Below, one piece after another: positions 2,886 through 58,048 of a DNA stretch of 64,000 bases; the stretch's first letter is position 1, and every line of letters begins with the position of its first letter. The notes under the pieces are model-generated. The model searched no databases, was not told the DNA's origin, and saw nothing but the letters and a program-made list of their open reading frames with translations. This DNA is from Nitrospirota bacterium (GTDB lineage Bacteria > Nitrospirota > UBA9217), in contig CAWIYV010000014.1 of assembly GCA_963840455.1 (NCBI GenBank), forward strand, positions 128,001 through 192,000, given 5' to 3'. A program made the translations under genes and the position numbers.

Positions 2886-3087
2886 CGAATACCTCTCAAG
2901 TCGTTGAATGGATTTATACCACGGAAAGCAGCAAGAATCAACACGTTCATCGGCATGCGGCGTCAAGAGCCATCATACCCCGGAAGTACAGGTATAGGGT
3001 GGAAGACCGGGACCGACGTTCGCCTCTGCGCCCGGTCCGGTGCGAGCCTCCGGGCATGAGCAGACGTTGACCGGCAGGTCATTTCCC

Positions 3088-41407: not shown

Positions 41408-43237
41408 TCAGCTCATTCTTTGCTTTACCGCCTCCACGATCGCTTTCGCGGATATCCCTTCATACTCCAGCAATTCCTCCGGTTTGCCGCTCTTCGGCAT
41501 GGCGCGGACAGCGAGGCCGTGGACCGGGACCGGGTCTTTTGACAACGCGGTCCGGACCGCGTCGGCGATGCCACCCTCGGCATAGTGGTCCTCCACGGTG
41601 ATGATGAATCCCGTATCGTCGGCCGCCTGGCGGAGGGTCGCCACATCGACGGGCTTCACGCTGTAGAGATCGATGACGCGGATAAGGATGCCTTCCTTCC
41701 TGAGAGCGTCATATGCCTTGAGAGCCTCATGGAGGGTGATGCCCGCGGCCACCACGGTAGCCTTGTCCTTTTTGCTCGAACGTAGGATTTTGCTCCCCCC
41801 GATCCAGAAGGCCTCGTCGTTCCGGTAGAGGATGGGCGTGTCCATGCGTGTCGTGCGCAGATAGCAGATGCCCTGGTGCTTTGCCATCTCTTCGACGAGC
41901 TTCTCCGTGGACACGGCGTCGGACGGGTAGAACACTACGCTGCCGAGGATGGCACGGAACAGGGAGAGGTCCTCGAGTCCCATCTGGGACGACCCGTCCT
42001 CGCCGATGGAAACGCCGGCGTGGGAACCGCAGAACTTGACGTTCGCGTTCGAATATTGGCTCATGCGGACCTGGTCCGCGGCGCGGGTCATGAACGCCGC
42101 GAAGGTCGAGACAAAGGGCACCTTGCTCCGGATCGAGAGGCCGAGCGCCGTGCCGACCATGTTCTGCTCGGCGATGAACATCTCGAAGAACCGCTCGGGA
42201 TATGCCTTCTTGAATATCTCGGCGTAGGTCGAGTTGCTCACTTCGCCGTCCAGCACCACCAGGTCCGGATATTGCGAAGCAAGCCGAGTGAGGGCCGCGC
42301 CGTAGGCATGCCGTGTTGCGACCGGTTTTTCGGTTGTGTACGAGACGGACGCGGCCATAACAGATCTCACCCTCGCAGGCTTCGCCCCCTGCGGTGGCTC
42401 TATCCTTCCCCGGAGCCCCCTGTCCACCGGACCCAGCTCCCGGAGAGCCCGGGCAAGCTCGTCCTTCTTGAGCGCCTTGCCGTGCCAGCCGTTCTTGTCC
42501 TCGATGAATGACACGCCCTTTCCCTTGAGCGTCCTGGCGATGATCATGTATGGCCTGTCGCTCATCTGGGAAGCCTGCTCAAAGGCCGTCACGATCTGCG
42601 GAAGGTGATGGCCGTCGATGACGATAGGTTCCCATCCGAAGGCAGCGACCTTCCTCTTATATATTGAGAGGTCATGGCCGTACATGGTCTCACCGCGCTG
42701 GCCCAGCCTGTTCACGTCCAGGATGCCGACAAGATTGCCGAGCTTGTAGTATGCCGCGATCTCCATGGCCTCCCAGACCGAGCCTTCGGCCATCTCGCTG
42801 TCGCCGAGCAGCACATAGGTCCGGTAGGGGAGCTTGTCGAGATATTTCGCATTCATCGCCATGCCCAGCCCGATGGACAACCCCTGGCCCAGCGACCCGG
42901 TTGCCGCCTCGGTATAGCGGAACGCCGGGGTCGGATGTCCCTCCAAGGGACTGTTGAACTTCCGGAGGGTGAGCAGTTCCTTTTCCGTCACTTTTCCCGC
43001 GGCTGCCCAGATGGCATAGAACAGGGGAGAAGCGTGGCCTTTCGAGAAGATGAGCCGGTCATTGTTCGGGTGGCGGGGATCGTCCAGATCGAACCGGAAC
43101 GTGCCCCCGAACAGAAGGCCCGCCATCAGGTCGGCTGCCGACAGGGACGACGTGGGGTGGCCGGAGCCGGCCTCGGTCGTGGAAACAAGACTGTAGTAGC
43201 GGATAAGCTTTGCCAGACCTTCCAGGTCATTGTTCAT
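41408..43237 (-). CDS. tkt: Transketolase (compact, animal-like type)
   Basis: SGHPTSSLS, SKGHA, EGHP, TGSLGQG, GDSEMAEGSVWEA, IAEQNMV, GEDG.SQM. Confidence 0.95.
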   Translation of the reverse strand: MNNDLEGLAKLIRYYSLVSTTEAGSGHPTSSLSAADLMAGLLFGGTFRFDLDDPRHPNNDRLIFSKGHASPLFYAIWAAAGKVTEKELLTLRKFNSPLEGHPTPAFRYTEAATGSLGQGLSIGLGMAMNAKYLDKLPYRTYVLLGDSEMAEGSVWEAMEIAAYYKLGNLVGILDVNRLGQRGETMYGHDLSIYKRKVAAFGWEPIVIDGHHLPQIVTAFEQASQMSDRPYMIIARTLKGKGVSFIEDKNGWHGKALKKDELARALRELGPVDRGLRGRIEPPQGAKPARVRSVMAASVSYTTEKPVATRHAYGAALTRLASQYPDLVVLDGEVSNSTYAEIFKKAYPERFFEMFIAEQNMVGTALGLSIRSKVPFVSTFAAFMTRAADQVRMSQYSNANVKFCGSHAGVSIGEDGSSQMGLEDLSLFRAILGSVVFYPSDAVSTEKLVEEMAKHQGICYLRTTRMDTPILYRNDEAFWIGGSKILRSSKKDKATVVAAGITLHEALKAYDALRKEGILIRVIDLYSVKPVDVATLRQAADDTGFIITVEDHYAEGGIADAVRTALSKDPVPVHGLAVRAMPKSGKPEELLEYEGISAKAIVEAVKQRMS

Positions 43238-43316
43238 GGGAACCTCCCTTATCGTCATTCGGTCAGACAAGAATATCGGATCCTGCAGCGACGCACCATT
43301 TGGGCATTGATAGCAG

Positions 43317-43363
43317 ATCCGTCGTTATCACAGATCTGCATCTGTTTTTATCCGTGTCAAAGA
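43317..43363. repeat. Solo right arm of family A IR after nuoN
   Basis: ATCCGTCGTTATCA...TTTATCCGTGTCAAAGA resembles the reverse complement of the 50411 arm. Confidence 0.75.
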
Positions 43364-43390
43364 TTTGCCGGGTATCCCGGGCTGACCAGA

Positions 43391-44845
43391 TCACGATAGG
43401 ATCCTCTCGATGAGCCGGAGCAGGAACTGCGGAGCTGTACCGACGCCGACGAGCAGTACCGCCTGCAAGGCCACGACGACGACGCCGAATACCGGCAGGC
43501 GGCGATCAACGGGCCATTGCACTCCGTCCGGCGCATCATCGGGACCGCTGTACATGGTCATAATGACGCGCAGATAATAGTAGGCGCTGACACCGGTGTT
43601 GATCACGAGCGCCAGGACCAGTACGAGATGCTTCGATGCCATGCCTGCGGCCACGAGGGAAAACTTGGCGATGAATCCCGCGAAGAGCGGAATGCCGAGC
43701 AGCGAGAGGATCGCCGCGGACAGGACCAGGGCGATCCCGGGTCTGCGCCAGGCGAGTCCCGTGTAGCCGTCCAGGTCATCGGCATCAGCATCAGCTCCCG
43801 ACAGGAGCGTCACGACCCCGAATGAGGCGAGGTTCGTTACGACGGTGAAGAAGAGGTAGATGAGGACCGCCGTCTGCGCCAGGAGGCCGCCCGACAAGAA
43901 CGCCACAAGCAGGTAGCCGTTATGGGCTATGGTCGAATAGGCGAGCATGCGTTTGACGCTCTGCTGCCGGAGGGCAAGAAGATTTCCGAGGGTCATCGAT
44001 GCGATGGAAATAGCGGAGAACAGGATGAACAGAAAACGGTCGTTCTCGATAAGGGAGGGCGGAAAGAGCCGCAGGAGCACGGTGATGACCGCCGCCTTCG
44101 ACACCGTGGAAGCAAATATCGTCACGGGTGCCGGAGCGCCTTCATAGACGTCCGGGGCCCACACATGAAAGGGGACCAGGGCGAGCTTGAAGCCCAGCCC
44201 CGCGATAAGGAGTGCCACGCCGAGATGATGGACCGGCGTCTGTGCACTCAGAAGCCGGAAGGAGGTGATGGCAGGGCCGAACAGCAGGCTTCCGGATCCG
44301 GCATACAGGAGCGCAATACCAAAAAGCAGGAATGCCGAGGAGACGCCGGAGAGGACCAGATATTTGAAGCCCGCTTCGATCCCGCGCGGACGATGGCGGT
44401 TATAAGCTGCCATGGCGACCAGGGGGATGCCGATGAGCTCGACCCCGAGAACGAGGGAGGCAAAGTGTGAGCTGGCGATGAGCACGAGGCCTCCCAGGGT
44501 CGCCAGCATCAGGAGTATGGTGAACTCACCTGCGGGCAACGCCTGCCTCTTGAAGTAGGGGTGAGCAAGGATGATGACGCACAACGCGGCGAACAGGACC
44601 AGACCGGTCGAGAACGCGGCAACGCCGTCAAGAAAAAGCAGGTCCGTACAGGGAGCCGGCAGACGGGGCATGACGGCGCCGAGGGAGAGCAATGAGCAGA
44701 TCAGGGTGAGGCCCGCGAGGAAAAGAACGGCCGCCTGGCGGCGAAATACCGCGGCGGAGATCAAGACGATGACCGTGCCCGCGGCAAGGATGACATGCGG
44801 GAGAATGGTCAGGAGATCAAAGCGCGTCACAGGCATCCCGGTCAT
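43391..44845 (-). CDS. nuoN: NADH-quinone oxidoreductase subunit N
   Basis: [48 protein letters not shown]. Confidence 0.95.
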
Positions 44846-45153
44846 CCTTTCATGGCCGATGCCTCGCGGGCATCAAGCGACCTGAAACGGTGATAGAAGT
44901 TGAGGACGAGGGCCAGCCCCACGGCGACCTCGGCGGCTGCAAGGGTCAGGATGAAGATGAACATCACCTGGCCGTCCGCCTGGCCCCAGTGGGCGCCCGC
45001 GACGATGAATGCCAGGCCCGCGGCATTCAGCATGATCTCCAGGGACATGAGCATGAAGACGATGTTCCTGCGGACCAGAACGCCGGCGAGGCCGAGCGAG
45101 AACAGGATGGCCGCAAGGATCAGGCCGTGTTCCAGGGGGATTGTTGCGATCAT
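44842..45153 (-). CDS. nuoK: NADH-quinone oxidoreductase subunit K
   Basis: [29 protein letters not shown]. Confidence 0.97.
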
Positions 45154-45172
45154 AGGCAAACATCCTTTCTTG

Positions 45173-45250
45173 GACACTGAAGACTCTGAGAGAAGCTATG
45201 AAGAACCCATGAAAAGGCCATTTCCTCTTATGGTCAGTGTCCTCAGTGTC
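45173..45250. repeat. Family A IR element in the nuoJ/K spacer
   Basis: GACACTGAAGACTCTGA ... TCAGTGTCCTCAGTGTC. Confidence 0.85.
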
Positions 45251-45747
45251 TAATTGTTCTGTTCCCGTCGTCCGAGATGATACGCACCCACGAGTCCTGC
45301 CAGCAGGAGCATGGATGCCAGTTCCACGCCGAGCGCGTAGGGGCCGAAGAGCGCAATGCCGACCTGCTTCGGAGGAATCGGCGCGCCGCTCAGGACCTGG
45401 GCGCCGTCATGCAGGAAGAAGTAAGCGAGCTCGAGCGCCAGGATGCCGCAGAGGATCGAAGGTCCCCGCCAGATGCCGGGCCTCAACCACTGCGCTTCCT
45501 GCCGCGCCGTTGCGCTGCCCAGGTTCAACATCATGATCACAAAGATGAACAGGACCATGATGGCGCCTGCATAGATGATGATCTCGAGCGCCGCTGCAAA
45601 AGGTGCGCCGAGGGTAAAAAAGAGGAGCGCCACGGACAGGAGCGATACGATGAGATACAGCAGCGCATGCACCGCGTTCGTCCGGGTGATGACCATGACG
45701 GTCGCGATGACCGCCACGAAGGCTGATATATAAAACAGAACATTCAT
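45250..45747 (-). CDS. nuoJ: NADH-quinone oxidoreductase subunit J
   Basis: NAVHALLYL, IIYAGAIMVLF.FV.MML, ELASMLLL. Confidence 0.97.
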   Translation of the reverse strand: MNVLFYISAFVAVIATVMVITRTNAVHALLYLIVSLLSVALLFFTLGAPFAAALEIIIYAGAIMVLFIFVIMMLNLGSATARQEAQWLRPGIWRGPSILCGILALELAYFFLHDGAQVLSGAPIPPKQVGIALFGPYALGVELASMLLLAGLVGAYHLGRREQNN

Positions 45748-45758
45748 AAAATATCCTT

Positions 45759-45922
45759 CGCCACTGGCGCAGAGACACAGAGAGAGCCAAAATAGTTTAC
45801 CGCAGAGGAACAGAGGAAAGTCTGAAAAGAGGAAGGCGAGAACGTGGGAAGAGAGGCGAACTATCTTGCTTCCCTTCTTAATTTCTCAGCGCTTTTCTCT
45901 GCGCCTCTGAGCCTCTGTGGCG
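45759..45922. repeat. Family A IR element in the nuoI/J spacer
   Basis: CGCCACTGGCGCAGAGACACAGAG...CCGCAGAGGAACAGAG ... CTCTGCGCCTCTGAGCCTCTGTGGCG. Confidence 0.8.
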
Positions 45923-45926
45923 GATT

Positions 45927-46442
45927 CTACGGCAGCAGGCTTTTCACGTCCACCGGTGGTTCCTCGTTCAATCCTTCTCCCTTGTCCTTACCCCCGATGG
46001 CCAGGCCGGCGACCTTATAGAAGTCATACCCGGGATATTTCCCCGGGCCGCTGATCAGCAGGTCCTCTTTTTCATACACCAGGTTCTGCCGGACATACTC
46101 GCCCATCTCGAAGTCCGTCGTCAGCTGGATGGCATAGGTCGGGCATGCCTCCTCGCAGTATCCGCAGAAGATGCAGCGCGAGAAATTGATGCGGAAAAAG
46201 GACGGGTAACGCCTTCCCTGTTCGTCCTCCGCGGCCTGGAGCGAGATGCAGCTCACCGGACAGGCAACGGCGCAGAGGTTGCAGGCCACGCAGCGCTCCT
46301 TCCCTTCGGGGTCCCGGGAAAGGATGATCCTGCCGCGCCAGCGGGGCGGGATAGCAGGCCGGTCCTCGGGATACTGGAGCGTCGCCCGCTTCCGGAAGGT
46401 GGTCCTCAGGACCGTCCATATGGATCTGAGAAGACTGAACAT
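45927..46442 (-). CDS. nuoI: NADH-quinone oxidoreductase subunit I
   Basis: [12 protein letters not shown] and [12 protein letters not shown]. Confidence 0.98.
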
Positions 46443-46451
46443 GAGTTTTTA

Positions 46452-46534
46452 TGACACGGAGGACACTGAAAAGACGTATGAAGTTCTGTATTACATCATA
46501 GTTTTTTCATAGAACAACAGTGTCCTCAGTGTCA
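46452..46534. repeat. Family A IR element in the nuoH/I spacer
   Basis: TGACACGGAGGACACTG ... CAGTGTCCTCAGTGTCA. Confidence 0.85.
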
Positions 46535-46546
46535 AAATAGTATCTC

Positions 46547-47500
46547 TTAGCCTTTCATGAGTATCCAGGCTCCGGTCGCAACAAGGTTCGCCAGCGACAG
46601 CGGCAGCATCACTTTCCATCCAAAGGCCATGAGCTGGTCGTACCGGGGGCGGGGAAGCGACGCCCGGATCAATATGAAGAAACAGATGAAGACGAAGGTC
46701 TTGAGCAGGAACCAGACGATCGGCGGCAGGAGCGGCCCATGCCATCCGCCGAAGAACAGCACGACGGTCATGGCGGACATGAGCGTGATGCCCAGGTATT
46801 CGCCGGCGAAGAACAGGCCGAACTTCAGGCCTGAGTACTCTGCATGATACCCTGCGACAAGTTCGCTCTCGGCCTCGGGAAGGTCGAAGGGAAGGCGGCG
46901 GGTCTCAGCGATGCCGGCAATGAAGAAGACCGCGAAGCCAAAGAATTGAGGTACGATGAACCATTGGCGGCGCTGGGCCTCGACGATGGCGACCAGGTCG
47001 AAGGAACCCGCTATCATGACCACGCCCATGAGCGAAAGGCCCATGAACACCTCGTAACTCAGCATCTGTGCCGCCGCCCGCAGGCCGCCCAGCAGCGAGT
47101 ACTTGCTGTTCGAGGCCCAGCCGGCCAGGGCGACGCTGTACACGCTGAGCGATGACATGGCAAGAAAGAACAGGATGCCGATGTTCAGGTCCACGACCTC
47201 GATGCCGGGGGCGAAGGGGATGACGGCAAAGGACATGACCACGGCGACCATGATGATGGCAGGCGCCAGGACGAACACCGCCTTGTCGGCGAACGGCGGT
47301 ATCCAATCCTCCTTTGCGAGCACCTTGATCATATCGGCGGCCACCTGCAGGAGGCCGAACGGCCCGACCCGGTTCGGCCCGTAGCGGTACTGCCAAAGAG
47401 CGAGGAGCCGTCGTTCGAGCCAGATCAGCAGACCACCGACGGTCAGGACCGAGATGAGGACGCTGAAAAGGATGATGAGGTGAAGGATGGTATCGCGCAT
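46547..47500 (-). CDS. nuoH: NADH-quinone oxidoreductase subunit H
   Basis: [44 protein letters not shown]. Confidence 0.98.
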
Positions 47501-47533
47501 AATTGTTACGGAGCGTACCGTATTGTTTCCATC

Positions 47534-47630
47534 CTTTGCCGCCGAGAAACACAGAGGACACTAGAGAAAGGCCGGTATCCTTGGTGGTCCTGAATTCTTC
47601 CCGGTGAACTCGGAGACCTCGGTGGCAAAG
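47534..47630. repeat. Family A IR element in the nuoG/H spacer
   Basis: CTTTGCCGCCGAGAAACACAGAGGACAC ... CTCGGAGACCTCGGTGGCAAAG. Confidence 0.8.
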
Positions 47631-47648
47631 TATTTAAGGCTCTTGTTC

Positions 47649-50388
47649 CTATGACCGTTTGACGATGCTTCCGAACGCCGGACCGTTCATGCCCCCGAGG
47701 GGGAGGACACCGGCCGGGTAGCCCGCCATGCCCGGCCGCAGGTCGGGCAGGATGGCCACGCGGCATTGGAGCCGTGTGCCGCCGGATAACAGCTCGACAA
47801 GGTCACCGGAAGATGCATTGAGCAGTTCCGCATCGCGCGGTCCCAGGGCAAGATAAGGTCCTGCTGCAAGTGCTGCGATGCCTGCAGCCTGTGCGCTCAG
47901 TTCCTCGGAGCCGAAGAGGTGATGCAGCGGGAACAGGAGCCATGTGCCCGGTCCTGTTGTAAAGGGCCCGGGAACGCCGTTGAAATAAGTCCCTGGCCCG
48001 GAGCTCCCCGGTCCCGGGAACAGCCTGCCCGCTTCTTCGCCTTCGGGCCGTACCGCCTCAGCGAATGCCGGCCCGTTCAACGCCTGGACCGAGTTCCATC
48101 CTGGCGACCAATACCGTGAGATGAGCGGCAAAGGCGGCCGGCCCTCGTAGCCTTCCATCGAGAAGGCCAGGGGAGAATCCGGGTCCTCCGGTGGTTTTTG
48201 TTCATGCACGTTCAAATTCGCAAGCATGGCAGTGCGCCCGCTGTACCGGTGCGGCTGTCGGGGGACCTTTGATCCCCTGATCCTGAATTCCGCCGGGGGC
48301 GCGATGTCCGCGGCAGGAGCAAGGACCGGCAAAGCCGATGCCATATGCTTCATGAGCGCGTCATAGGAGGGCGAACCTCCTACCGCCGTTCTCCCGGCCG
48401 CCTCCATTATATCATTGATCCATTTCCCGCTTGCCTGAATATCGCCCTGAGGGACGTATACCTGATAGGACCGCTGCGCCCGGCCTTCATTGTTCACCAG
48501 CGTCCCGTGCGATTCAGCGAAAGTGCCTGCGGGAAGTACGATGTCCGAGCGTGCTGTTGTTGCGTTGACAAGATGGTCGAGAACAATAATGTGCTTTGCC
48601 TTGCCAAGGAACGCGTCGATGGTCGCCCCGTCGCCCCTGCGGTAGAGATCGTTCTCAAGAATGATGACCGTATCGGCAAGGCCGTCCTGCATGACGGTGA
48701 AGGCTTCGCCAAGATTCCTGCCTCCCATGATGCCGGTACCCATGCTGTTGCATTCAGGGACCGTATAGCAGAGCGATGCGGCACTGCTGCTCCTGGAGAG
48801 GGCCACTGCCACGTTGGCCGCGGACATTACAATGGCATCGTTCTAGCAGACTTGTGCCGGAGACGATGAGCGGCCGCTTGGCGTCCTTGAGAGCCCGGGC
48901 GATCTGTCCGGCAAGCGCTGTGGCCTCAGGGTCCAGGTCAGCGACCTCAGGCTCAGCGGGGTCCAGTTCATGGGCAATGGCAAAGCCCAGCCGCGCGATA
49001 TCGTCGGGGGCGGCCTTATAAGACCTTGTCGAGATGTCGTCCAGTTTCGTATCGGTGACCGTGGCGATATACAGCGGGCTCTTCGCGCCCTGCCCGGCGT
49101 TCCGTACGCCTGCATCCTGCCATTTGGGGATCCTGAGCTTCGCTGCTGCATCAAGCTCTTTCTGGCGCACGGACTGGCGGAGCGAGAGGGCAAGGAGGGG
49201 GGCCGTGTTCGTCACATCCTCTCCCAGGACCAGCACCGCATCGGCGTTCCGGACATCGTGCAGGGAAGACGGCCGGGCAGGGCCTCTCCCGAGGACATCA
49301 ATGATCCGGGAGACGAGCGCATGGTCCTTATCTGACATGCCGGAGTAGAAGTTCTCCGGTCCGACAAGCGTGCGCAGAGCAAAGTTGGATTCCAGCGATG
49401 CGCGGGGCGAGCCTATGCCGATGATGCCCTTGCTGGTGGATAGGATTTCGGCGATGCGCTCGAGAGCGGATCCTTTTTCAACAGGCTGGAGGTCCCCCTC
49501 ACCCTGACCTCTCCCCGACAGGGAGAGGGGTAATATGGCAAGAGGTTTCCTGATGCGTTTATCGCTGTTCACGAACTCGTATCCAAACCGGCCACGGTCG
49601 CACAGGAAATAGCCGTTCACCTCGTAATGGAAGCGGTTCGCGATCCTGCGCAGGGAACGGTCGCGCTCGCCGGCGATGGTGTTGCATCCCAGACCGCAGT
49701 GAACACAGATGGACGGCGCGGTCTGGAGGTCCCATTTGCGGGTGAAGTGCTGCTTCAGGGTCTTGTCGGTGAACACGCCCGTGGGGCAGACCTCGACCAG
49801 GTTGCCGCTGAACCCGCTTTCGAGCACGCCGTCTTCTTGCCTGCCGAAATACACGTGGTCGTGGGCGCCGAATACATTCAGGTCCCGCCCCCCCGCGTAC
49901 TCCCGGTAGAACCGAACGCACCGATAGCACTGGATGCACCGGTTCATCTCGTGGTTGATGAATGGGCCCAGGTACTGGTTCCGGTGCGTGCGTTTCCTGA
50001 ATCGCGTGCGGCGGTACGCATGGCCTGTCATGACCGTCATGTCCTGGAGGTGACATTCGCCGCCTTCGTCGCATACCGGGCAGTCGTGCGGGTGGTTCAG
50101 CATGAGCCACTCGATCACTCCCTTCCGGAACGCCCTGGCATCCGGGTCGTCCACGGAGATGCGCATACCCTCGGTTACCGGGGTCATGCAGGACATGATG
50201 ATCTTCCCGCGCCGGTCGTGTTCGTCCTTGAACTGCTTGACCGCGCACTGGCGGCAGGCGCCAACGGCATGCAGGGCGGGGTGCCAGCAGAAGTAGGGAA
50301 GGTCGAACCCCAGCGAGAGGCACGCCTGGAGAAGGTTCTGGTCAGGCCTGACCTGGCGGGGCTGGTTGTCGATGAAGATCGTGATCAT
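47649..50388 (-). pseudogene. nuoG: NADH-quinone oxidoreductase subunit G, long type, split by a one-base frameshift near 48845 (ORFs 50388-48754 and 48827-47649)
   Basis: FCWHP...[39 protein letters not shown]; C-terminal part (LPAGTFAE..GTLVNNEGRAQR, PHRYSGRTAM) is in another frame. Confidence 0.85.
49494..49530. repeat. Palindromic element inserted in frame in nuoG
   Basis: CCCCCTCACCCTGACCTCTCCCCGACAGGGAGAGGGG, translated as [12 protein letters not shown]. Confidence 0.75.
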
Positions 50389-50410
50389 AGGGATAAGAAA
50401 AACAAAGATG

Positions 50411-50882
50411 ACCTTTGACACAGATTTACACTGATTAAAATCCTGATAACGGCGGATACTTCTTTTCTTGATTAATAGACACGGCGAACGATCTTGAGTT
50501 TCTCTCCGAAATTGACCAAGAGGCCGACTTTGATACCGGTAGCCTTGAGATAATTCACCAATTGTGCTTCATGGGCTTTTGACAGAGTGGATATGGCTTT
50601 CAACTCAACGATGACCTTGTCCTCGACAAGAAGGTCAGGAAAATATTCTCCAACAAGCTGCTTTTCAAAGAAGACATTAACCGGGACTTGTTGAACTGCT
50701 GTCAGACTCTTTTGGGCTATCTTGATCATCATCGCATTTTCGTACACTTTCTCGGAAAAGCCAAAGCCGAGCTGATTATAGACATCGTATGCACATGCGA
50801 TGATTTTATCCGTCAGTTCAGCGTGTAGATAATTCTTATCCGCAGTTATCATAGTGATATCCGCCTCTTCTGTGTCTAAGGT
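50411..50882 (-). mobile_element. GxxExxY gene cassette bounded by ~46-48-bp imperfect inverted repeats (family A)
   Basis: Arm 50411-50458 ACCTTTGACACAGA...TGATAACGGCGGATA; reverse complement of 50837-50882 is ACCTTAGACACAGA...TGATAACTGCGGATA; lower GC than nuo genes. Confidence 0.7.
50472..50852 (-). CDS. GxxExxY protein (PD-(D/E)XK-like fold)
   Basis: [43 protein letters not shown]; 126 aa. Confidence 0.95.
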
Positions 50883-52153
50883 TATCTCCACGGGCACTTC
50901 TTCTCCCGTATGTGCCGTTCGAAATCCTCCCGGAAGTACTTCAACGCGCTCTGGAGCGGCTCCACGGCGCCGGGGGCCAGGGCGCAGAAGGTATTGCCCG
51001 GGCCCAGGAGCCTGCACTGCTGCTCCAGGACCTCGATGTCTGACTGTTCACCCTGTCCGGTCTCGATGGCATCGAGGAGCTTAACGATCCACGGTAGCCC
51101 TTCGCGGCATGGCGTGCACCAGCCGCAGGACTCTCGGGCAAAGAAGGCTTCCAGGTTGTGAACGAACCCGACCGGGCAGGTCCGGTCATCGAGAACGGTC
51201 ATGGTGCCGGTGCCCATGCGGCTTCCGGCCTTCACGATAGAATCAAAATCCATCTGAACGTCCAGGTGGTCCGCGGTGAGAAAATCTGTCGAGGCACCGC
51301 CCGGGACCAGGCCCCGCAGGGCATAGCCGTCCTGCATGCCGCCCGCGTGGTCCTCAAGCAGCTCACGGATGGTGGTGCCCATGGGAAGCTCCCAGGCGCC
51401 CGGCCGTTTCACCCTGCCGGACACGCCGTAGATCTTGGTCCCGCCGTCGGCGGTCCTGCTGAGCGCCTTGAACCACCCGGGCCCGTTGTTCACGATGTGC
51501 GGAATGTTCGCGACCGTTTCCACATTGTTGACGACGGTGGGCCTGCCCCAGAGGCCGCAGGCCAGGGGAAAGGGCGGCTTTGCTCGGGGCGTGGCGCGTT
51601 TTCCCTCGAGCGCGTTGATCAGGGCCGTTTCCTCGCCGCAGATGTAGCGGCCCGCGCTGGTGTGGATGCGGAGCTCGAGGTTATACCCGGAGCCCAGGAT
51701 GTTGGCTCCGAGGTAGTTCTTTTCGTACGCCTCGGCGATGGCCTTGTTCAGACGCTTCTCAGCGAGCGTATATTCCCGGCGGAGGAAGATATAGGCCTTT
51801 TCCGCCTGAACGGCGTAAGAGCTCGTGATGATCCCTTCGATCATCTGGTGCGGATCACCCTCCAGCAGAAATCGGTCCTTGAAGGTCCCGGGTTCCATCT
51901 CGTCGGCGTTCACGATAAAGTAGCGGGGCTGCGGAACATTGCCGACCGGAAGCGCCAGGCCCCACTTCATGCCCGTGGGAAAGCCTGCGCCGCCGCGGCC
52001 GCGAAGGTCCGAGGCCTTGACCATCGTGATGATGTCCTTGGGAGCCATGGCGAGCGCCTTGCGGCCGGACCGGTAGCCGCCGGCCTTCTCGTATTCCGCG
52101 AGCGAGAGGGGCTCCTGACCGGGGCGTATGTTCTGAGTTAAAGGGCGTTCCAT
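50882..52153 (-). CDS. nuoF: NADH-quinone oxidoreductase subunit F
   Basis: LRGRGGAGFPTG.KW, NADEMEPGTFKDR, YICGEETAL, ESCGWCTPCREG. Confidence 0.98.
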   Translation of the reverse strand: MERPLTQNIRPGQEPLSLAEYEKAGGYRSGRKALAMAPKDIITMVKASDLRGRGGAGFPTGMKWGLALPVGNVPQPRYFIVNADEMEPGTFKDRFLLEGDPHQMIEGIITSSYAVQAEKAYIFLRREYTLAEKRLNKAIAEAYEKNYLGANILGSGYNLELRIHTSAGRYICGEETALINALEGKRATPRAKPPFPLACGLWGRPTVVNNVETVANIPHIVNNGPGWFKALSRTADGGTKIYGVSGRVKRPGAWELPMGTTIRELLEDHAGGMQDGYALRGLVPGGASTDFLTADHLDVQMDFDSIVKAGSRMGTGTMTVLDDRTCPVGFVHNLEAFFARESCGWCTPCREGLPWIVKLLDAIETGQGEQSDIEVLEQQCRLLGPGNTFCALAPGAVEPLQSALKYFREDFERHIREKKCPWR

Positions 52154-52175
52154 GATAGAGCCTTAACGAACGATA

Positions 52176-52293
52176 ACCTTTGACACGGAAGAGGCGGATG
52201 AAAAGCCTGATAACGGCGGATTACATGAATGCTGCTGGCTAAAGATCTATCCGCTCTTATCTGTAGTTCAATCCGATTTTATCCGTGTCAAAG
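52176..52293. repeat. Empty family A element (same arms as the GxxExxY cassette, ~27-bp core)
   Basis: ACCTTTGACACGGAAGAGGCGGAT...TGATAACGGCGGAT ... ATCCGCTCTTATC...ATCCGTGTCAAAG. Confidence 0.9.
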
Positions 52294-52300
52294 AAATCGT

Positions 52301-52765
52301 TTAAATATACTTTTCCAGGATCCCGTCCAGCATCTCCGGCGTCATGGGGCCGTACAGGTCATCGTTCACCAGCATGGCCGGCGCGCGGTCACAGGCGCCG
52401 AGGCAGGCGACCGGCAGCAAGGTGAAGCGGTTGTCCGGCGTCGTGCCGCCGGGCCCGATGCCGAGCTTCTGAAGGAGCAGTTCGTATAGGGGGTTATATC
52501 CCATGGTCCAGCAGACCATGCTGTCGCAAATTTGAACGATATGCCTGCCCACGGGCCGCCGAAAGATGAAATTATAGAACGTCGCGACCGCGTCAAGCTC
52601 GGCCGGTGTCATGCCAAGCATGCCCGCGACGTCATGGATGCTTTCGTCGGATATCCAGCCGCGGTTCTTCTGCACGATCTTGAGCGCTTCGACGCTCGCG
52701 GATTCCGGGAGTTCGCAGCGCTCCAGCTCAGCGTCTATTTCATTTTTTTCTTCGTGCGTAAGCAT
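52301..52765 (-). CDS. nuoE: NADH-quinone oxidoreductase subunit E
   Basis: VATFY, CDSMVC, CLGACDRAP. Confidence 0.97.
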   Translation of the reverse strand: MLTHEEKNEIDAELERCELPESASVEALKIVQKNRGWISDESIHDVAGMLGMTPAELDAVATFYNFIFRRPVGRHIVQICDSMVCWTMGYNPLYELLLQKLGIGPGGTTPDNRFTLLPVACLGACDRAPAMLVNDDLYGPMTPEMLDGILEKYI

Positions 52766-52782
52766 AAGGTCAAACCCTTTGT

Positions 52783-52818
52783 ATCAGGTCTTAGATCCGT
52801 GCAAATCCGTGTCCAAAG
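52783..52818. repeat. Solo family A arm in the nuoCD/E spacer
   Basis: ATCAGG...ATCCGTGCAAATCCGTGTCCAAAG. Confidence 0.7.
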
Positions 52819-52824
52819 CTTTTA

Positions 52825-54570
52825 TCACCGGTCCAGATCAGCCAGAATAAAGTCAATGCTCCCCAGGATCGCCAGCAGGTCAGCGATCATCAAACCCTTC
52901 GCGACCTTCGGCACCATCTGGAGGTGCGGGAACGAAGGGGTGCGGATGCGGGTGCGATAGGAATGGATGTCCCCGTCGCTGACGAGATAGTATCCGTTGC
53001 TCCCCTTCGTCGCTTCGATGCCCATGAACACCTCGCCGGCCGGGACTACCGGGCCCCAGCTCACGCCGAGGAAGTGGGTGATGAGCGTCTCGATGTCCTT
53101 CATGGTCCGTTCCTTGGCTGGTGGCACCGCCAGGGGGTGGTCCGACTTGTACGGGCCTTCGGGCATGTTCTTCACGCACTGTTCGACGATGCGGAGGCTC
53201 TGGCGTATCTCTTCGATGCGGACCACGCCGCGGTCATAGCAGTCGCCGTTCTTCGCAATCGGGATGTCGAACTCGAAGTTCTCATAGCCCGAATAGGGCC
53301 GCTTCTTCCGGAAGTCCCAATCCATGCCGCAGGCGCGCAGCCCGGGGCCGGTCACGCCCCATTCAATGGCGTCCTCAAGCATATAGGCGCCCACTCCCTT
53401 GGTCCGGCCCTTGAAGATGCTGTTCCGCATCACGATCCTGTCGTACTCGGCAAGCCGCGGCGGGAGGTATTTCAAAAAGTCCTTCATCAGCCGCTCCCAT
53501 CCACGCGGGAGGTCCTGTGCCACGCCGCCGATGCGGAACCATGCCGGGTGCATCCGTCCGCCGCAGACCGCCTCTACGATGTCAAAGACGCGCTCCCGGT
53601 CGGTGAACATGTAGAACACAGGCGAGAAGGAGCCCACGTCCTGGGCGAAGGTCCCGTACCAGACCAGATGGCTCTGGATGCGGAACAGCTCGGCCATCAT
53701 CACGCGGATGACCTTGACCCGGTCCGGCACCTCGATGCCGGCGAGCTTCTCCACGGCAAGGACATAGGCGAGGTTGTTCATCACGCCGCCGAAGTAGTCG
53801 ACGCGGTCGGTGTAGGGGATGTAGGTATGCCAGGTCTGGCGCTCGGCCATCTTCTCGGCGCCCCGGTGGTGATAGCCGATGTCGAGCACGGCGTCCCTGA
53901 TCTCCTCGCCGTCGAGCTGGAGGATGATGCGCAGCAGGCCATGGGTGCCGGGGTGCTGGGGTCCGAGGTTCAGGAACATGAGGTCAGTGTCGTCACTGTG
54001 CCGTTCCATGCCCCAGTCCTCAGGCCGGAACCGGAGCGACTGCTGCTCGGTGTCCATCCGCTCCTCATGCATGCGGAAAGGGCCCATCTCCGTGGCGCGG
54101 GCGGGATGGTCCTTGCGCAGGGGGTGGCCGCTCCAGGTGGGCGGCATCAGGATGCGGCTGAGATGCGGGTGGCCGTCGAACTTCACTCCGAACATGTCCC
54201 AGACCTCGCGCTCGTACCAGTTCGCGGAAGGCCAGATATCCGTAATCGATGGCAGCGAAAGCGATGCCTCGGCAAGCGGCACCTTGACCCGGATGTCGTC
54301 GTTCCGGTCGAACGACAGGAGATGGTAGACGATGGTGAAGTCGGAGCCGGGCTGGTCCGGCCGGTTCTCGCGGACCCGTTCGTCAATGGCCGTGAGGTCG
54401 TAGAGCATCCGGTAGGGGCGTTCAACGGAGTTTTTGAGGTGCCGCAGGACGTCACGGACGCTGTCACGGGCCACCCATACCGTGGGGATGCTGTCCTTTG
54501 TTGGCTGGACCGCGAGGATGGCCTCGCCGAAGGAGGCTTTCAGATCAGCAATGATGGAGGCATGCGCCAT
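52825..54570 (-). CDS. nuoC: NADH-quinone oxidoreductase fused subunit C/D
   Basis: [45 protein letters not shown], terminal DLDR. Confidence 0.97.
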
Positions 54571-54587
54571 AAATAAGATATGATATT

Positions 54588-54839
54588 TGACACTGAGGAC
54601 GCTGAGAAAATATGAAGAGAACCTCTGACACGGAAGGACCGGATAACGATCTGGATAAAGGCGGATAGATCCAGATCGCATCATTCAGAAAGTTAGCAAA
54701 CGTCTTTTCAGACTGGTCTTTACAGTGTCCTCAGTGTCCGTAGTATTGATTCTTGCCCTATCCGCTTTTATCCGGCTCTTGTTTGCCTTGATCCGTGTCA
54801 AAGGTCCTCTTATCGGTTCTTTCAGTGTCCTCAGTGTCA
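54588..54839. repeat. Nested family A elements in the nuoB/CD spacer
   Basis: Outer TGACACTGAGGACGCTGA / TCAGTGTCCTCAGTGTCA encloses inner TGACACGGA...GGATAAAGGCGGATA / TATCCGCTTTTATCC...ATCCGTGTCA, plus an extra CAGTGTCCTCAGTGTC arm. Confidence 0.88.
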
Positions 54840-54844
54840 GAAGA

Positions 54845-55459
54845 TCACACTTCATCAGGTGACGGAAGGTCCGTCGCGGCGATGCGCTCCTGCCGCTTTT
54901 GGTCGCGCATGCACGGCAGAGAGGGCCGCGCCACGCCCTGCGGTCCAGCGACCCAGCTCACCGGCCGGCGTTCAGCCCCGATCTTCTTCTGGAGCAGCAG
55001 GAGGCCCTCCATGAACGCTTCAGGACGGGGAGGGCAGCCCGGGATGTACACATCGACCGGGAGGAACTTGTCCACGCCCTGGACGACGCTGTAGATGTCG
55101 TACATGCCGCCGGAATTGGCGCACGATCCCATGGAAATGACCCAGCGCGGTTCCATCATCTGCTCATACAGCCGCTTGATGACCGGGGCCATCTTGATGA
55201 AGACCGTCCCGGCGACGACCATGAGGTCCGCTTCGCGTGGCGTGCCGCGAATCACCTCGGCGCCGAAGCGGGCAAGATCGTATTTGCTCGTGAGGCTGGT
55301 CGCCATTTCGACGTAGCAGCAGGAAAGCCCGAAGTTGAAGGGCCAGACCGAGTTCTTCCTGCCCCAGGCAAGCATGTCCTGGAGCCGGGTCAGAAGGAGG
55401 CTCTGACGGACGGCATCGTCTAGGGTTGGAGCGGAGGCTTTGGTGAGGGACCAGTTCAT
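54845..55459 (-). CDS. nuoB: NADH-quinone oxidoreductase subunit B
   Basis: [27 protein letters not shown]. Confidence 0.98.
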
Positions 55460-55490
55460 GAAACCGCCTTTAATACGAGAACGAAGAGTA

Positions 55491-55669
55491 TTCGACACGG
55501 AGGATACGGAAAAAGCAATGATACCGTCGTGACCGGGGAACAAGAGAACCTTTGACACGGATCACGGCGGATCAAGGTTTCCGATAAAGACGGATAAGGC
55601 AGTGTTGATCATCTTTTGAACCTATCCGCAGCTATAATAGGTACCTATCAGTGAAAATCCGTTTCAAAG
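55491..55669. repeat. Family A elements in the nuoA/B spacer, right arm overlapping the nuoA 3' end
   Basis: GACACGGAGGATACGGA; CTTTGACACGGATCACGGCGGAT...GATAAAGACGGATA ... TATCCGCAG...ATCAGTGAAAATCCGTTTCAAAG. Confidence 0.82.
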
Positions 55670-56106
55670 ATCTTTTCTTCTTTATTTACTGCTCTCTGTC
55701 TCCGTGTCCCCTTGTCATCGCGTTGTTTTATCCCCCAGTCCAGCAAGCCGAGACGCCAGAGATAGGCTAGCGCGGCAGCTAGGACGCCGACGAAGACCAG
55801 GACCTCGGCGTATCCGGCCCATCCGGTCTCCCTGACGGCCACGGCCCAGGCATAGAGGAACGCGGCCTCCAGGTCGAAGACGAGGAAGATCACGGCAACG
55901 AGATAGAACTTGATGTCGAAGCGGACCTGCGCACTGCCCGTGGAGACGATGCCCGACTCGTAAGGCTCGCCGGTCGCCCGTTCGCGGTGGCGCTGTCCAA
56001 GCACGAAGGAAAGCCCGATCAGTCCGGCGATGATCACCACGATGGCCATAAAGTAGACCGCCAGCGGCCAGAACGTCTGATCGTCAATGACAGGGCTAGG
56101 CATCAT
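55648..56106 (-). CDS. nuoA: NADH-quinone oxidoreductase subunit A with repeat-derived C-terminal tail
   Basis: PYESG, KFYLVAVIFLVFDLEA, WRLGLLDW. Confidence 0.96.
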   Translation of the reverse strand: MMPSPVIDDQTFWPLAVYFMAIVVIIAGLIGLSFVLGQRHRERATGEPYESGIVSTGSAQVRFDIKFYLVAVIFLVFDLEAAFLYAWAVAVRETGWAGYAEVLVFVGVLAAALAYLWRLGLLDWGIKQRDDKGTRRQRAVNKEEKIFETDFH

Positions 56107-56348
56107 AAAACTCCTGTGAAATCGGCCTCTTCAGAGGATACCACATGCAGGTTGAAAGTCAAGCGGGGGCGTCTTTGTCGGCCGCGCAGCGCCCCGGTCA
56201 GGAAGGCCATGGCGCATTCCCTTCCTCCGCGGATATCAGTGCTTGCTCGGGACGCGCCTGACACGGAACGCGCGAAGGGTTGACAAAGCGATTGCACACT
56301 GTTAATCTACCGGCGGATAATATAATAACAGATTGGAAGGAGCAAACA

Positions 56349-57104
56349 ATGAAGCACATACTGATGACCACAGTGTGCCTTGCTCTGCTGGTGACACCGG
56401 CAGTGCCGGCAGAGAAGAAGGACGAATTGAAGACGCAAAAGGACAAGGTCAGCTATCTGATCGGCGTGGACATGGGCAGAAAGATGAGGGCGGAGTTCGA
56501 CAAACAGTCGATCGATGTCGATCCCGCGGTCCTCGCGAAAGGCATCAAGGACGCCCTGGCCGGCGGAAACATTCTTCTCACCGACGCCGAGCTCCAGGAG
56601 ATCAGGACGGCGCTCCAGAGCGACATAGCGGCGAAGAACATGGAGCGCGTGAAGGCCCTTGCCGAGAAGAACAAGAAGGACGGTGACGCCTTCCTCGCGG
56701 AGAACAGGAAGAAGGACGGCGTCAAGACGACCGACAGCGGGCTCCAGTACAAGGTCATCACTGTTGGAACGGGCAGGTCCCCCAAGGCCACGGACAAAGT
56801 AACGGTGAACTACCGCGGAACGCTCGTTGACGGCAATGAATTCGACAGTTCGTACAAGCGCGGCGAACCGGTCTCCTTTTCGCTGAACCAGGTGATCAAG
56901 GGCTGGACCGAAGGCATCCAGCTCATGAAAGAAGGGAGCAAGTTCACGTTCTTCATCCCGTCGGAGCTTGCCTACGCTGAGCGGGGCACGCCAGGCGGTC
57001 CCATCGGACCCAACGCGGTCCTGATCTTTGACGTCGAGCTGCTGTCCATCGGGGAGAAGGCCCCGGCGGCGGTCCAGCCGGGGAGAGGCGTGACGAACAA
57101 ATGA
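56349..57104 (+). CDS. fkpA: Periplasmic FKBP-type PPIase (FkpA/Mip family)
   Basis: Signal peptide; KVSY.IG, SGLQY, V.VNYRGTL..G.EFDSSY, VIKGWTEG, IPSELAY. Confidence 0.92.
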   Translation: MKHILMTTVCLALLVTPAVPAEKKDELKTQKDKVSYLIGVDMGRKMRAEFDKQSIDVDPAVLAKGIKDALAGGNILLTDAELQEIRTALQSDIAAKNMERVKALAEKNKKDGDAFLAENRKKDGVKTTDSGLQYKVITVGTGRSPKATDKVTVNYRGTLVDGNEFDSSYKRGEPVSFSLNQVIKGWTEGIQLMKEGSKFTFFIPSELAYAERGTPGGPIGPNAVLIFDVELLSIGEKAPAAVQPGRGVTNK

Positions 57105-57153
57105 GGACGCGGCTCGCAGTCGGGAACTCGAGACCGTACACGAAGGAGGGTCT

Positions 57154-57729
57154 ATGAAGGTCATAGCGTTCAACGGAAGCGCGAAGAAGGACGGGAATAC
57201 AGCCATTCTGCTGAATACCGTGATGGATGAGTTGAAGGCCGCCGGGATCGAAACAGAGCTGTATCAGCTCTCGGGCAAACCGATCCAGGGGTGCATCGCC
57301 TGTATGAAATGCTTTGAGAACAAGAACAAGCGCTGCGCCGTGGAGAAAGACATCATCAATGAGTGCATCCAGAAGATGATAGAGGCGGACGGCATCCTGC
57401 TGGGGTCGCCGACCTACTTCGCCGATGTTTCCGCGGGCATGAAGGCGCTCATCGAGCGGTGCGGCATGGTTTCCCGGGCGAACGGGGATATGTTCCAGCG
57501 CAAGGTGGGCGCGGGGGTCGTTGCCGTGCGTCGCGCCGGAGCGTACCACGTGTTCAGCTCATTGAATGCGTTCTTCCTCATCGGCCAGATGATCATCCCG
57601 GGTTCGAGCTACTGGAACCTGGCGCACGGCAGGCTGCCCGGCGAGGTCAAGAACGATGAAGAGGGAATGCGGACGATGAAGCAGCTGGGCCAGAACATGG
57701 CGTGGCTGATGAAGCAATTGAAGAAGTAG
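57154..57729 (+). CDS. Flavodoxin-family / iron-sulfur flavoprotein (FMN_red)
   Basis: NGSAKKDGNT, CIACMKC...C cluster motif, GSPTYF. Confidence 0.9.
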   Translation: MKVIAFNGSAKKDGNTAILLNTVMDELKAAGIETELYQLSGKPIQGCIACMKCFENKNKRCAVEKDIINECIQKMIEADGILLGSPTYFADVSAGMKALIERCGMVSRANGDMFQRKVGAGVVAVRRAGAYHVFSSLNAFFLIGQMIIPGSSYWNLAHGRLPGEVKNDEEGMRTMKQLGQNMAWLMKQLKK

Positions 57730-57757
57730 TCCTGAAGAAGATGCGTGGGAAAACGAG

Positions 57758-57788
57758 AACGGGATGCCGAAAAGGCATCCCGTTTTTT
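57758..57788 (+). terminator. Rho-independent terminator
   Basis: AACGGGATGCC-GAAAA-GGCATCCCGTT followed by T-run. Confidence 0.85.
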
Positions 57789-58048
57789 AATTGCCATGCT
57801 GGTGACCGACTACAAGTGGAGGCCGGATTGAGAGCTGAAAGTACACTTCACCTGCTAGACTGCATACACAACGTCTGGTTCAATCGCCGGATCGTTGGCG
57901 CAAGGACAAACTGAAAAGATTACGCTCCGCCCCCGGCAGAAAAAGGGTTGCTCGGTCGTCTACCGCTCACGTTCATTTACGCATTCTCGTTCATCTGCCC
58001 AGGAAGATATGCAACCGCGACGCTCGATCATGCCTGACAATGCGGTTG

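Follow-up and report, generated by a model that had tools for sequence, protein, structure and literature searches.

Inverted short-word arrays around a GxxExxY gene at the nuoF–nuoG junction of a Nitrospirota bacterium, and a related family of gene-less hairpins

The complex I (nuo) operon of a Nitrospirota bacterium (GTDB lineage Bacteria; Nitrospirota; UBA9217) poses the question of why a small gene for a nuclease-like protein should lie between nuoF and nuoG, enclosed by inverted repeats, and why the same repeats should recur one gene away with no gene between them. The operon lies in a stretch of 64,000 nucleotides (nt) from assembly GCA_963840455.1 (contig CAWIYV010000014.1, positions 128,001 to 192,000 of the forward strand), which is called the window here and to which plain position numbers refer. 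Judged from sequence comparison, positions 50406–50887 appear to be one member of a widespread family of small cassettes, in which a PF13366 gene stands within two inverted arrays of short words. The gene-less hairpin at 52176–52293, the 'empty twin', and about 110 other hairpins appear to be gene-less members of the same repeat system.

The cassette, its protein and its gene-less twin

All genes of the operon are on the minus strand. nuoF (423 amino acids (aa), 52153..50882; Pfam Complex1_51K, NADH_4Fe-4S and SLBB) is followed by the 126-aa GxxExxY gene (50852..50472; PF13366, also named PDDEXK_3, and TIGR04256), which is followed in turn by an open reading frame (ORF) of 544 aa for the N-terminal part of nuoG (50388..48754, by profile match). 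This is the co-oriented arrangement described in the original prediction, which also proposed imperfect inverted repeats of about 47 bp around the gene. Inverted arms are present, but not as one continuous repeat of that length. They match in two blocks, 50406–50424 with 50869–50887 (19 nt, 89%) and 50444–50458 with 50837–50851 (15 nt, 93%), which are separated by an unmatched block of 17–19 nt, and each arm is thus a mosaic. Inverted-repeat search and the sequence itself place the upstream arm at 50837..50887 (minus strand), with the terminal word TTAGACAC followed by two copies of GCGGAT. The downstream arm, at 50406..50458 on the same strand, comprises a ATCCGCCGTTATCA block, an unmatched TTTACACTGA-type module and a terminal GTGTCAAAGG, and its modules are found again elsewhere in the genome.

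The upstream arm is interwoven with coding sequence. It begins within the last nuoF codons, and its outer end contains the nuoF stop codon TAA (50884..50882). Read on the gene strand, CCTTAGACACAGAAGAGGCGGATATCACTATGATAACTGCGGATAAG lies directly 3′ of this stop and contains the ATG of the GxxExxY gene, and ATCCGCCGTTATCAGGATTTTAATCAGTGTAAATCTGTGTCAAAGG lies directly 3′ of the stop of the GxxExxY gene. The upstream arm also carries a GAGG Shine–Dalgarno-like motif and its inner block carries the ATG at 50852, so that the sequence confirms an arm that both adjoins the nuoF stop and holds the start of the enclosed gene. The best flank-to-flank inverted alignment around the cassette scores 28, a value reached at 6 of 3000 random places in the genome. 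Both repeat motifs are enriched in the window (10 matches vs 1.8 expected, and 24 vs 5.0), and none of 100 shuffles reaches either count.

The 126-aa protein matches PF13366 with E 5.1e-41 (140.1 bits, cut-off 22) over positions 2–113 of 117, and TIGR04256 ('GxxExxY protein') with E 4.3e-40 (136.7 bits, cut-off 35). Both the GxxExxY motif and the catalytic pattern of PD-(D/E)XK enzymes (E ... D ... ExK) are present. Across 85 sequences, residues G31, E34, Y37, E83, K85 and Q97 are invariant, and D73 is conserved in at least 90%. The predicted model, with a predicted local distance difference test score (pLDDT) of 93.6, has a compact, restriction-endonuclease-like α/β PD-(D/E)XK fold. Its best structural matches are 3ijm (Z 8.3), AF1548 (8.1), Cas4 SSO0001 (8.0), several restriction enzymes and Hjc (6.8). 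With none above Z 8.3, these matches are generic for the fold and give the model no finer assignment. A search of the PDB by sequence profile for a relative of solved structure returned no match at E up to 1, and a homodimer prediction from two copies with an alignment scored 0.00 against a mark of 0.42 and gave no answer.

The entry for PF13366 in a 2012 superfamily survey gives its function as 'Unknown' (PMC3424549), and a passage in another paper mentions a GxxExxY domain beside a reverse transcriptase (PMC8934634). A literature search with the terms GxxExxY, PF13366 and TIGR04256 and with array strings found no account of the pairing of gene and array, in a coverage that left out subscription journals and supplements.

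The gene and its arms are conserved beyond expectation for silent sites. Between nuoF–nuoG orthologues, the proportion of non-synonymous differences (pN) is 0.12–0.28 and that of synonymous differences (pS) 0.71–0.92, the latter being saturated. Among the genome of the window (G000) and its relatives G001 and G016, the upstream arms are 69–82% alike and the downstream spacers 60–63% alike, and third codon positions are only 37–47% alike. On these alignments, the gene and its non-coding arms are both under purifying selection.

One gene upstream, between nuoE (154 aa, 52765..52301, by profile match) and nuoF, lies the gene-less twin. The spacer had been described as holding the same arms around about 27 bp, and it indeed forms a full hairpin at 52176..52293, with arms at 52241–52293 and 52176–52221 and a loop of 27 nt. 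Two segments, of 28 nt (93%) and 25 nt (92%), are common to this hairpin and the cassette arms. Its predicted fold is strong both as RNA (−47.9 kcal/mol, z −4.75) and as DNA (−26.5, z −5.36), and none of 200 shuffles folds as well in either case.

Word arrays, PF13366 genes and orthologous junctions

The genome of the window (14 contigs, 4.03 Mb) contains four intact and two degraded PF13366 genes, and all six lie between inverted short-word arrays, with a word that varies by locus. The word is CACAGAG at C9:141015, CACGAAT at C4:158455 and C7:63009, GCGAAGG at C7:125656 and C14:500246, and GCGGAT with GACAC-N-GA at the nuo locus. Flank scores at the six loci are 40, 28, 29, 42, 42 and 22, and these are reached by 0, 6, 1, 0, 0 and 156, respectively, of the flank-to-flank inverted alignments at 3000 random places that served as control. 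Of 80 relatives' loci in other genomes, 55 score above the 99.9th percentile of this control and represent 11 named phyla. Their arms are arrays of CACAGAG, CACGGAG, CACTGAG, CGCAGAG, CACGAAG, CGCCAAG, CACGGAT and similar words at a period of 8–9 nt. The general consensus is C-R-C-N-R-A-K every 8–9 nt, of which the nuo cassette is a loose variant. The polarity of the arrays is fixed, with 34 of the 80 loci having the word reading inward from both ends and four the opposite. Other GxxExxY loci, proposed earlier as the place to look for flanking inverted repeats, thus carry them at six of six loci in this genome and at 55 of 80 elsewhere. Sequence comparison therefore supports inverted arms as a general property of PF13366 genes, in this genome and across phyla.

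The arrays are far more abundant than the genes. A triple-word pattern has 116 matches in the genome of the window, against one for the reversed control, and a looser definition yields 262 forward and 273 reverse arrays. Pairs of arrays with a loop of up to 200 nt are convergent in about 120 cases and divergent in four. Once overlaps are removed, the count of gene-less hairpins is 112 and their median length 97 nt. Array pairs with loops of 300–1500 nt were considered as elements and discarded, as they are mostly chance pairings around ordinary genes, and a motif-cluster scan of the window was dropped as too noisy in GC-rich coding DNA. Two dispersed hairpin pairs are 85% and 82% alike, loops included, and the likeness stops at the element ends; these pairs are old copies of one element at different sites. 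The sequences thus support a single dispersed repeat family that comprises the gene-plus-arms unit and the gene-less twin.

Arrays and gene were compared across 301 genomes of the phylum, with genomes carrying four or more arrays counted as array-positive. PF13366 occurs in 71 genomes and at least one triple-word match in 86. Genomes with both gene and arrays number 55, with the gene only 16, with arrays only 17 and with neither 213. Within the family to which the genome of the window belongs, the corresponding counts are 48, 3, 3 and 10, and outside it they are 7, 13, 14 and 203. As kin genomes are not independent, a contrast within one genus is more telling: its five genomes without the gene have 0–1 arrays, and nine of its ten genomes with the gene have 17–186. 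The co-occurrence of arrays with PF13366 across genomes is supported, although the link is not absolute.

The class of the word also follows the protein. A tree built from 85 proteins divides, at its deepest supported split (92), into clades of 25 and 60 rows. The smaller clade contains all 11 cassettes with T-ending words (..GAT, ..AAT) together with the nuo-linked group, and the cassettes with G-ending words (..GAG, ..AAG), 44 in number, all fall in the larger. Both clades include members from Bacteroidota and from the genome of the window, and in each case it is the protein, not the host, that the word follows. Mapped on the tree, word class requires nine changes; 300 shuffles required 18.5 on average and never fewer than 14. 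This distribution shows that gene and arms travel and persist as a unit, and it suggests that protein and word are matched in specificity.

Orthologous junctions differ in what they hold. A GxxExxY gene is present between nuoF and nuoG in four genera, namely in the genome of the window, G001 (78% aa identity), G013 (75%), G016 (72%), G011 (73%) and G002 (57.5%). The identity of 72–78% tracks that of nuoF (75–83%), with G002, whose cassette has different arms, as an outlier. In G004 and G005 the same junction is occupied by a CACAGAG hairpin with no gene, a further four relatives have other sequence there, and in G017 it measures 11 nt, with overlapping stop and start. At the nuoE–nuoF junction, an orthologous hairpin of the twin is found in G003, G005 and G002, and a CACGAAG hairpin stands in its place in G004. 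The nuoI–nuoJ junction carries a GxxExxY cassette in G005 and G002 and a gene-less hairpin in the genome of the window. The nuoCD–nuoE junction has a full hairpin in G003 and G001 and 0–18 nt in G005, G002 and G004. The nuoG–nuoH junction is 0 nt in G002 and G004, nuoA–nuoB is 6 nt in G002, and several nuo junctions are 0–7 nt among the five congeners compared.

Metagenome contigs, which derive from relatives and not from the same strain, add two replacements. In contigs of 85% likeness, everything between the nuoF stop and the nuoG start is exactly replaced by 469 other letters in two runs, and in one low-depth contig the hairpin at 52179–52291 is exactly replaced by 35 other letters. Presence, absence and replacement at orthologous junctions are thus all seen. 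Neither of two outcomes named earlier as speaking against a mobile element, arms missing from other GxxExxY genes and junctions free of presence/absence variation, was observed. The comparison of nuoF–nuoG junctions in relatives, suggested earlier as a means of finding empty sites and target duplications, yielded filled, gene-less, replaced and short states and, among these diverged genomes, no visible target duplication.

Explanations of the word arrays

The explanation to which we lean, by a small measure, is a selfish system at the DNA level whose nuclease would read words of its own. The nuclease would recognise its word class at both ends of the cassette and in the gene-less hairpins, and would cut at the words, leaving the joining of ends to host repair or replication. 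Such cutting would promote the insertion, copying or retention of elements in intergenic gaps. The logic would be that of repetitive extragenic palindromic (REP) sequences and their REP-associated tyrosine transposases (RAYTs), with a hydrolytic enzyme of restriction-endonuclease fold replacing the tyrosine HUH transposase. We infer the binding or cutting of words by the protein, and the resulting spread, from the pairing of gene and word described above.

Several observations weigh against this explanation. To our knowledge, a hydrolytic PD-(D/E)XK nuclease cannot join DNA by itself. The nuoF–nuoG gene looks, from its sequence, long resident and vertically inherited, and not recently moved. 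Among the 112 hairpins, a search for near-identical dispersed copies gave 67 pairs covering at least 80% of the length, of which only one exceeds 86% identity; the pair in question, at 98%, was rejected as a recent copy since it is part of a 1.3-kb segmental duplication. No target-site duplication is visible at dispersed copies or between filled and empty junctions, where the material consists of diverged genomes and old copies, and no clean empty site in a near-identical strain could be defined among the congeners and relatives compared. Clear arms are lacking within 170 nt at 25 of the 80 relatives' loci. The 17 array-positive genomes without a PF13366 match include the near-complete G051 (100%), G023 (98%) and G267 (99%), which have 11–18 arrays, and G033 (92% complete), which carries 89; conversely, 16 PF13366 carriers have fewer than four arrays of the C-R-C-N-G-A-G-type word. 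The link between word and clade amounts to one deep split, and co-inheritance of linked gene and arms could by itself produce it. Arms of the same word class from unrelated loci, where alignable (262 of 2500 pairs), show the same mismatch profile as the two arms of one locus.

Other genes also occupy arrays of this kind. Four of the five PF05635 genes in the genome of the window lie in the same inverted, phased-word layout with other words: GTAGGTA at C14:314066, CAGTC at a period of 11–12 nt at C11:402166, GACGCGG at C13:87228 and TTGCAAA at C1:257786. At C9:240237–240721, CACAGAG / CTCTGTG arms surround an unrelated ORF of about 110 aa with a signal-peptide-like N-terminus.

A vehicle for the GxxExxY gene was sought in phage and plasmid records, and none was identified. 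A tblastn search of phage records gave no match to the protein, and the eight plasmid records with a relative are all typed as non-mobilizable and are mostly very large replicons.

Of the view that an autonomous element is accompanied by a derivative resembling a MITE (a miniature transposable element with inverted repeats), the parts that hold are a single repeat family, arms as a general feature, co-occurrence of gene and arrays, and polymorphic junctions; target duplication, near-identical copies and recent movement did not emerge.

The enclosure of PF05635 genes and of the signal-peptide-like ORF is what would be expected if the hairpins came first and the genes were cargo. The arrays would then be self-propagating or made by the host, through replication slippage, fold-back synthesis or another factor; GxxExxY, PF05635 and small ORFs would be passengers, and the nuclease would have an unrelated job. 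The excess of gene-less hairpins over genes (about 112 to 6) and the occurrence of four or more arrays in 17 of 230 PF13366-negative genomes point the same way. This explanation is nevertheless considered unlikely, if by no means negligible. PF05635 is present in 168 of the 301 genomes, and in families f9, f11 and f26 it occurs in 36 of 50, 17 of 23 and 7 of 7 genomes, whereas arrays occur there in 1 of 50, 1 of 23 and 0 of 7. The single array-bearing genome of f9 is also its only PF13366 carrier, and the arrays flank that gene. Arrays of C-R-C-N-G-A-G thus follow PF13366, not PF05635. Furthermore, the last base of the word follows the clade of the nuclease across host phyla, and a word conserved over 11 phyla calls for a conserved reader.

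A different possibility, raised in the original prediction, is that the arms act as RNA, in the manner of the intervening sequences of 23S rRNA. The arms would pair in the nuo transcript, and the stem would be cut, for example by RNase III, or would mask the ribosome-binding site and ATG of the passenger, uncoupling it from the operon; the gene-less hairpins would serve as stabilisers or processing sites of mRNA. In keeping with this, the twin has a strong RNA fold, the arms of the cassette pair around GAGG and ATG in its minimum-energy fold, the hairpins lie at transcribed operon junctions, and the same layout is seen in this genome for PF05635, the family to which the ORFs of rRNA intervening sequences belong. 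The fold of the whole cassette is, on the other hand, unexceptional (z −1.67; 9 of 100 shuffles as good), and a search of 42000–58000 against Rfam at E up to 0.1 gave only a chance-level match to Ysr276 (21.5 bits vs a gathering score of 100).

The mismatches in the arms are more informative on this point. Sense-strand mismatches in the aligned arms of the 55 loci comprise 56 G.U and 58 A.C pairs, and 20 loci have more G.U, 19 more A.C and 16 equal numbers. Because a stem selected in mRNA tolerates G.U far better than A.C and should strongly favour it, this equality leaves no trace of RNA-level selection, and the long-RNA-stem alternative draws no support from the mismatch spectrum. Differences between the arms are also unevenly distributed over the word: positions 1, 3, 5, 6 and 7 differ in 0–3% of cases, position 2 in 14%, position 4 in 31% and the spacer in 18% (107 words, 42 loci), and a mirror analysis gives the same profile. 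One free and five near-fixed positions, alike in distant phyla, appear to be the pattern of a recognition word and not of a freely drifting stem. Correspondingly, words are kept as sequence across phyla, with no drift by compensatory change. Action at the RNA level is therefore regarded as distinctly improbable.

Pairing between the two arms of one element is a separate matter. It is not demonstrated, because own and cross-locus arms give equal mismatch profiles, and a measure of arm homogenisation was saturated by alignment scoring and decides nothing on pairing. The six orthologous nuoF–nuoG cassettes have A, G, G, G, T and T at position 4 of their terminal words, and in every one of them the two arms agree at this position; this hints at homogenisation, in too few cases to carry weight. 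In the nuoF–nuoG spacers of G004 and G005 (L002/L003), every word is CACAGAG in one arm and CTCCGTG, the complement of CACGGAG, in the other. This puts A.C mismatches on the sense strand and G.T mismatches on the opposite one, and one arm of this hairpin appears to have been homogenised as a block.

That the protein is instead a host caretaker, a resolvase- or Cas4-like structure-specific nuclease processing repeat hairpins or cruciforms, with the arms as insertions of the repeats it polices, would suit a fold like those of Hjc resolvases, Cas4 and restriction-type nucleases (Z 6–8) and the strong purifying selection and long residence of the gene, but is very improbable given that the structural matches are of a generic kind (Z at most 8.3), that several paralogues per genome, each with its own word class, would not be needed, and that travel with arms across phyla would not be expected.

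A word-reading nuclease, the explanation favoured above, can be set beside known systems. In REP/REP doublet forming hairpin (REPIN) systems of Proteobacteria, the gene for a RAYT (TnpA-REP, a Y1 HUH enzyme) is flanked by inverted copies of a dispersed repeat. The two share several features: the repeat whose inverted copies flank the enzyme gene is far commoner, without the gene, in intergenic gaps, the gene is long resident and does not hop, and hairpin-forming repeats lie within operons. The enzyme here is, however, a 126-aa hydrolytic PD-(D/E)XK nuclease and not a Y1 HUH transposase (PF01797), the repeat is an array of 7-nt words at an 8–9-nt period and not one palindrome, several classes of gene and word share one genome, and at least 11 phyla share the word family.

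Intervening sequences of 23S rRNA carry an S23p / PF05635 ORF in Leptospira, Coxiella and others. These likewise place a small ORF within inverted repeats able to form a long stem, and the PF05635 genes of the present genome have the same phased-word inverted flanks. The cassette differs in lying between nuoF and nuoG of an mRNA operon and not in an rRNA helix, and in carrying a PF13366 ORF; moreover, the arrays do not follow PF05635, and the mismatch spectrum bears no sign of RNA-level selection.

With MITEs and insertion sequences, the family has in common terminal inverted repeats, short non-autonomous copies, an intergenic site and nesting. It differs in that the element contains no DDE or other known transposase, its only ORF being the 126-aa PF13366 gene, that no target-site duplication was found, and that the arms are internally repetitive arrays. 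Homing endonucleases and TnsA of Tn7 resemble it as small nucleases that are the only or an accessory protein of selfish DNA, and the recurrence of one protein clade at nuoF–nuoG in several genera, with one discordant allele, is reminiscent of homing. TnsA works only with a DDE partner, and homing needs no inverted arms and leaves no family of gene-less hairpins, both of which are present here. The closest system in logic is REP/RAYT and in layout the ORF-bearing rRNA intervening sequence, and the cassette fails the defining enzyme or location test of each.

If the nuclease does read and act on word hairpins, this would account for the filling of operon junctions by one repeat family in many phyla, with about ten such junctions in this operon, and would add a type of mobile or selfish DNA whose enzyme chemistry is new. 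From the large family PF13366/TIGR04256 it would also provide small, programmable-looking, word-specific nucleases. A broader proposal is that a new class of prokaryotic mobile DNA has GxxExxY as its only protein, a sequence-specific hydrolytic nuclease that would read phased 7-nt words at either end of hairpin-armed cassettes and spread thousands of gene-less hairpins into the junctions of most bacterial phyla. Its mechanism would differ from DDE, HUH, serine and tyrosine recombination, and word and protein would co-evolve into specificity classes, of which the T-ending and G-ending words would be two. This is put forward tentatively, as a possibility that falls short of being probable.

Other elements of the operon and genome

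Elements of the family lie at about ten nuo junctions. Motif matches and congeners place a hairpin of the same family at the nuoA–nuoB junction (55549..55670), between nuoA (56106..55648) and nuoB (55558..54845). The nuoB–nuoCD spacer contains a nested element (54584..54843), recognised from sequence, motif matches and congeners, in which a GGAT-type hairpin (54622–54804) lies within a GACACTGAGG-type hairpin. From its start at 54684, the longest nuoCD ORF crosses the right arms of these nested hairpins, and the true nuoCD start is probably the ATG at 54569. For annotation, arms of this kind supply stops and starts and make false N-terminal ORF extensions, as at the nuoCD start. nuoCD ends at 52825, and a solo arm (CTTTGGACACGGATTTGCACGGAT, 52788..52818, minus strand; motif matches and congeners) marks the nuoCD–nuoE junction.

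After the twin at nuoE–nuoF and the cassette at nuoF–nuoG, the operon continues downstream of nuoG with nuoH, nuoI and then membrane subunits. nuoG itself is represented by two ORFs in different frames on the minus strand, 50388..48754 and about 48749..47649, and by a single frame in the congener G005; the split may be a frameshift, an assembly error or real. At the nuoG–nuoH junction, a hairpin (CTTTGCCACCGAG ... CTCGGCGGCAAAG, 47533..47631) is identified by motif matches and congeners. At nuoH–nuoI, the hairpin GACACTGAGGACACTG ... CAGTGTCCTCCGTGTC (46453..46538) has a DNA fold of z −4.0, with none of 200 shuffles as good; the corresponding spacer of G002 (L117) holds a G/C-rich palindromic repeat of the CCTCCCC..CCTTGCCAAGGAGGGG type. 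The gene-less hairpin at nuoI–nuoJ (45800..45923) is of CACAGAG type. The nuoJ stop codon TAG falls within the terminal word of the hairpin at nuoJ–nuoK (TAGACACTGAGGACACTGA ..., 45175..45252), and a further solo arm (TCTTTGACACGGAT ... GATAACGACGGAT, 43317..43363, minus strand) lies in the spacer of two large antiporter-like subunit genes.

A Y1 transposase (PF01797) was considered as the mobiliser of the hairpins and rejected: the genome has only an interrupted IS200-like frame and a fragment, neither of which is enclosed by arrays, and a hidden RAYT is not the driver. At C10:393691–394400, an IS200-like Y1 frame that contains an internal TAG is found immediately downstream of a tRNA gene, and beyond this tRNA gene, on the side opposite to the frame, there is a solo TTTGACACGGAT arm.

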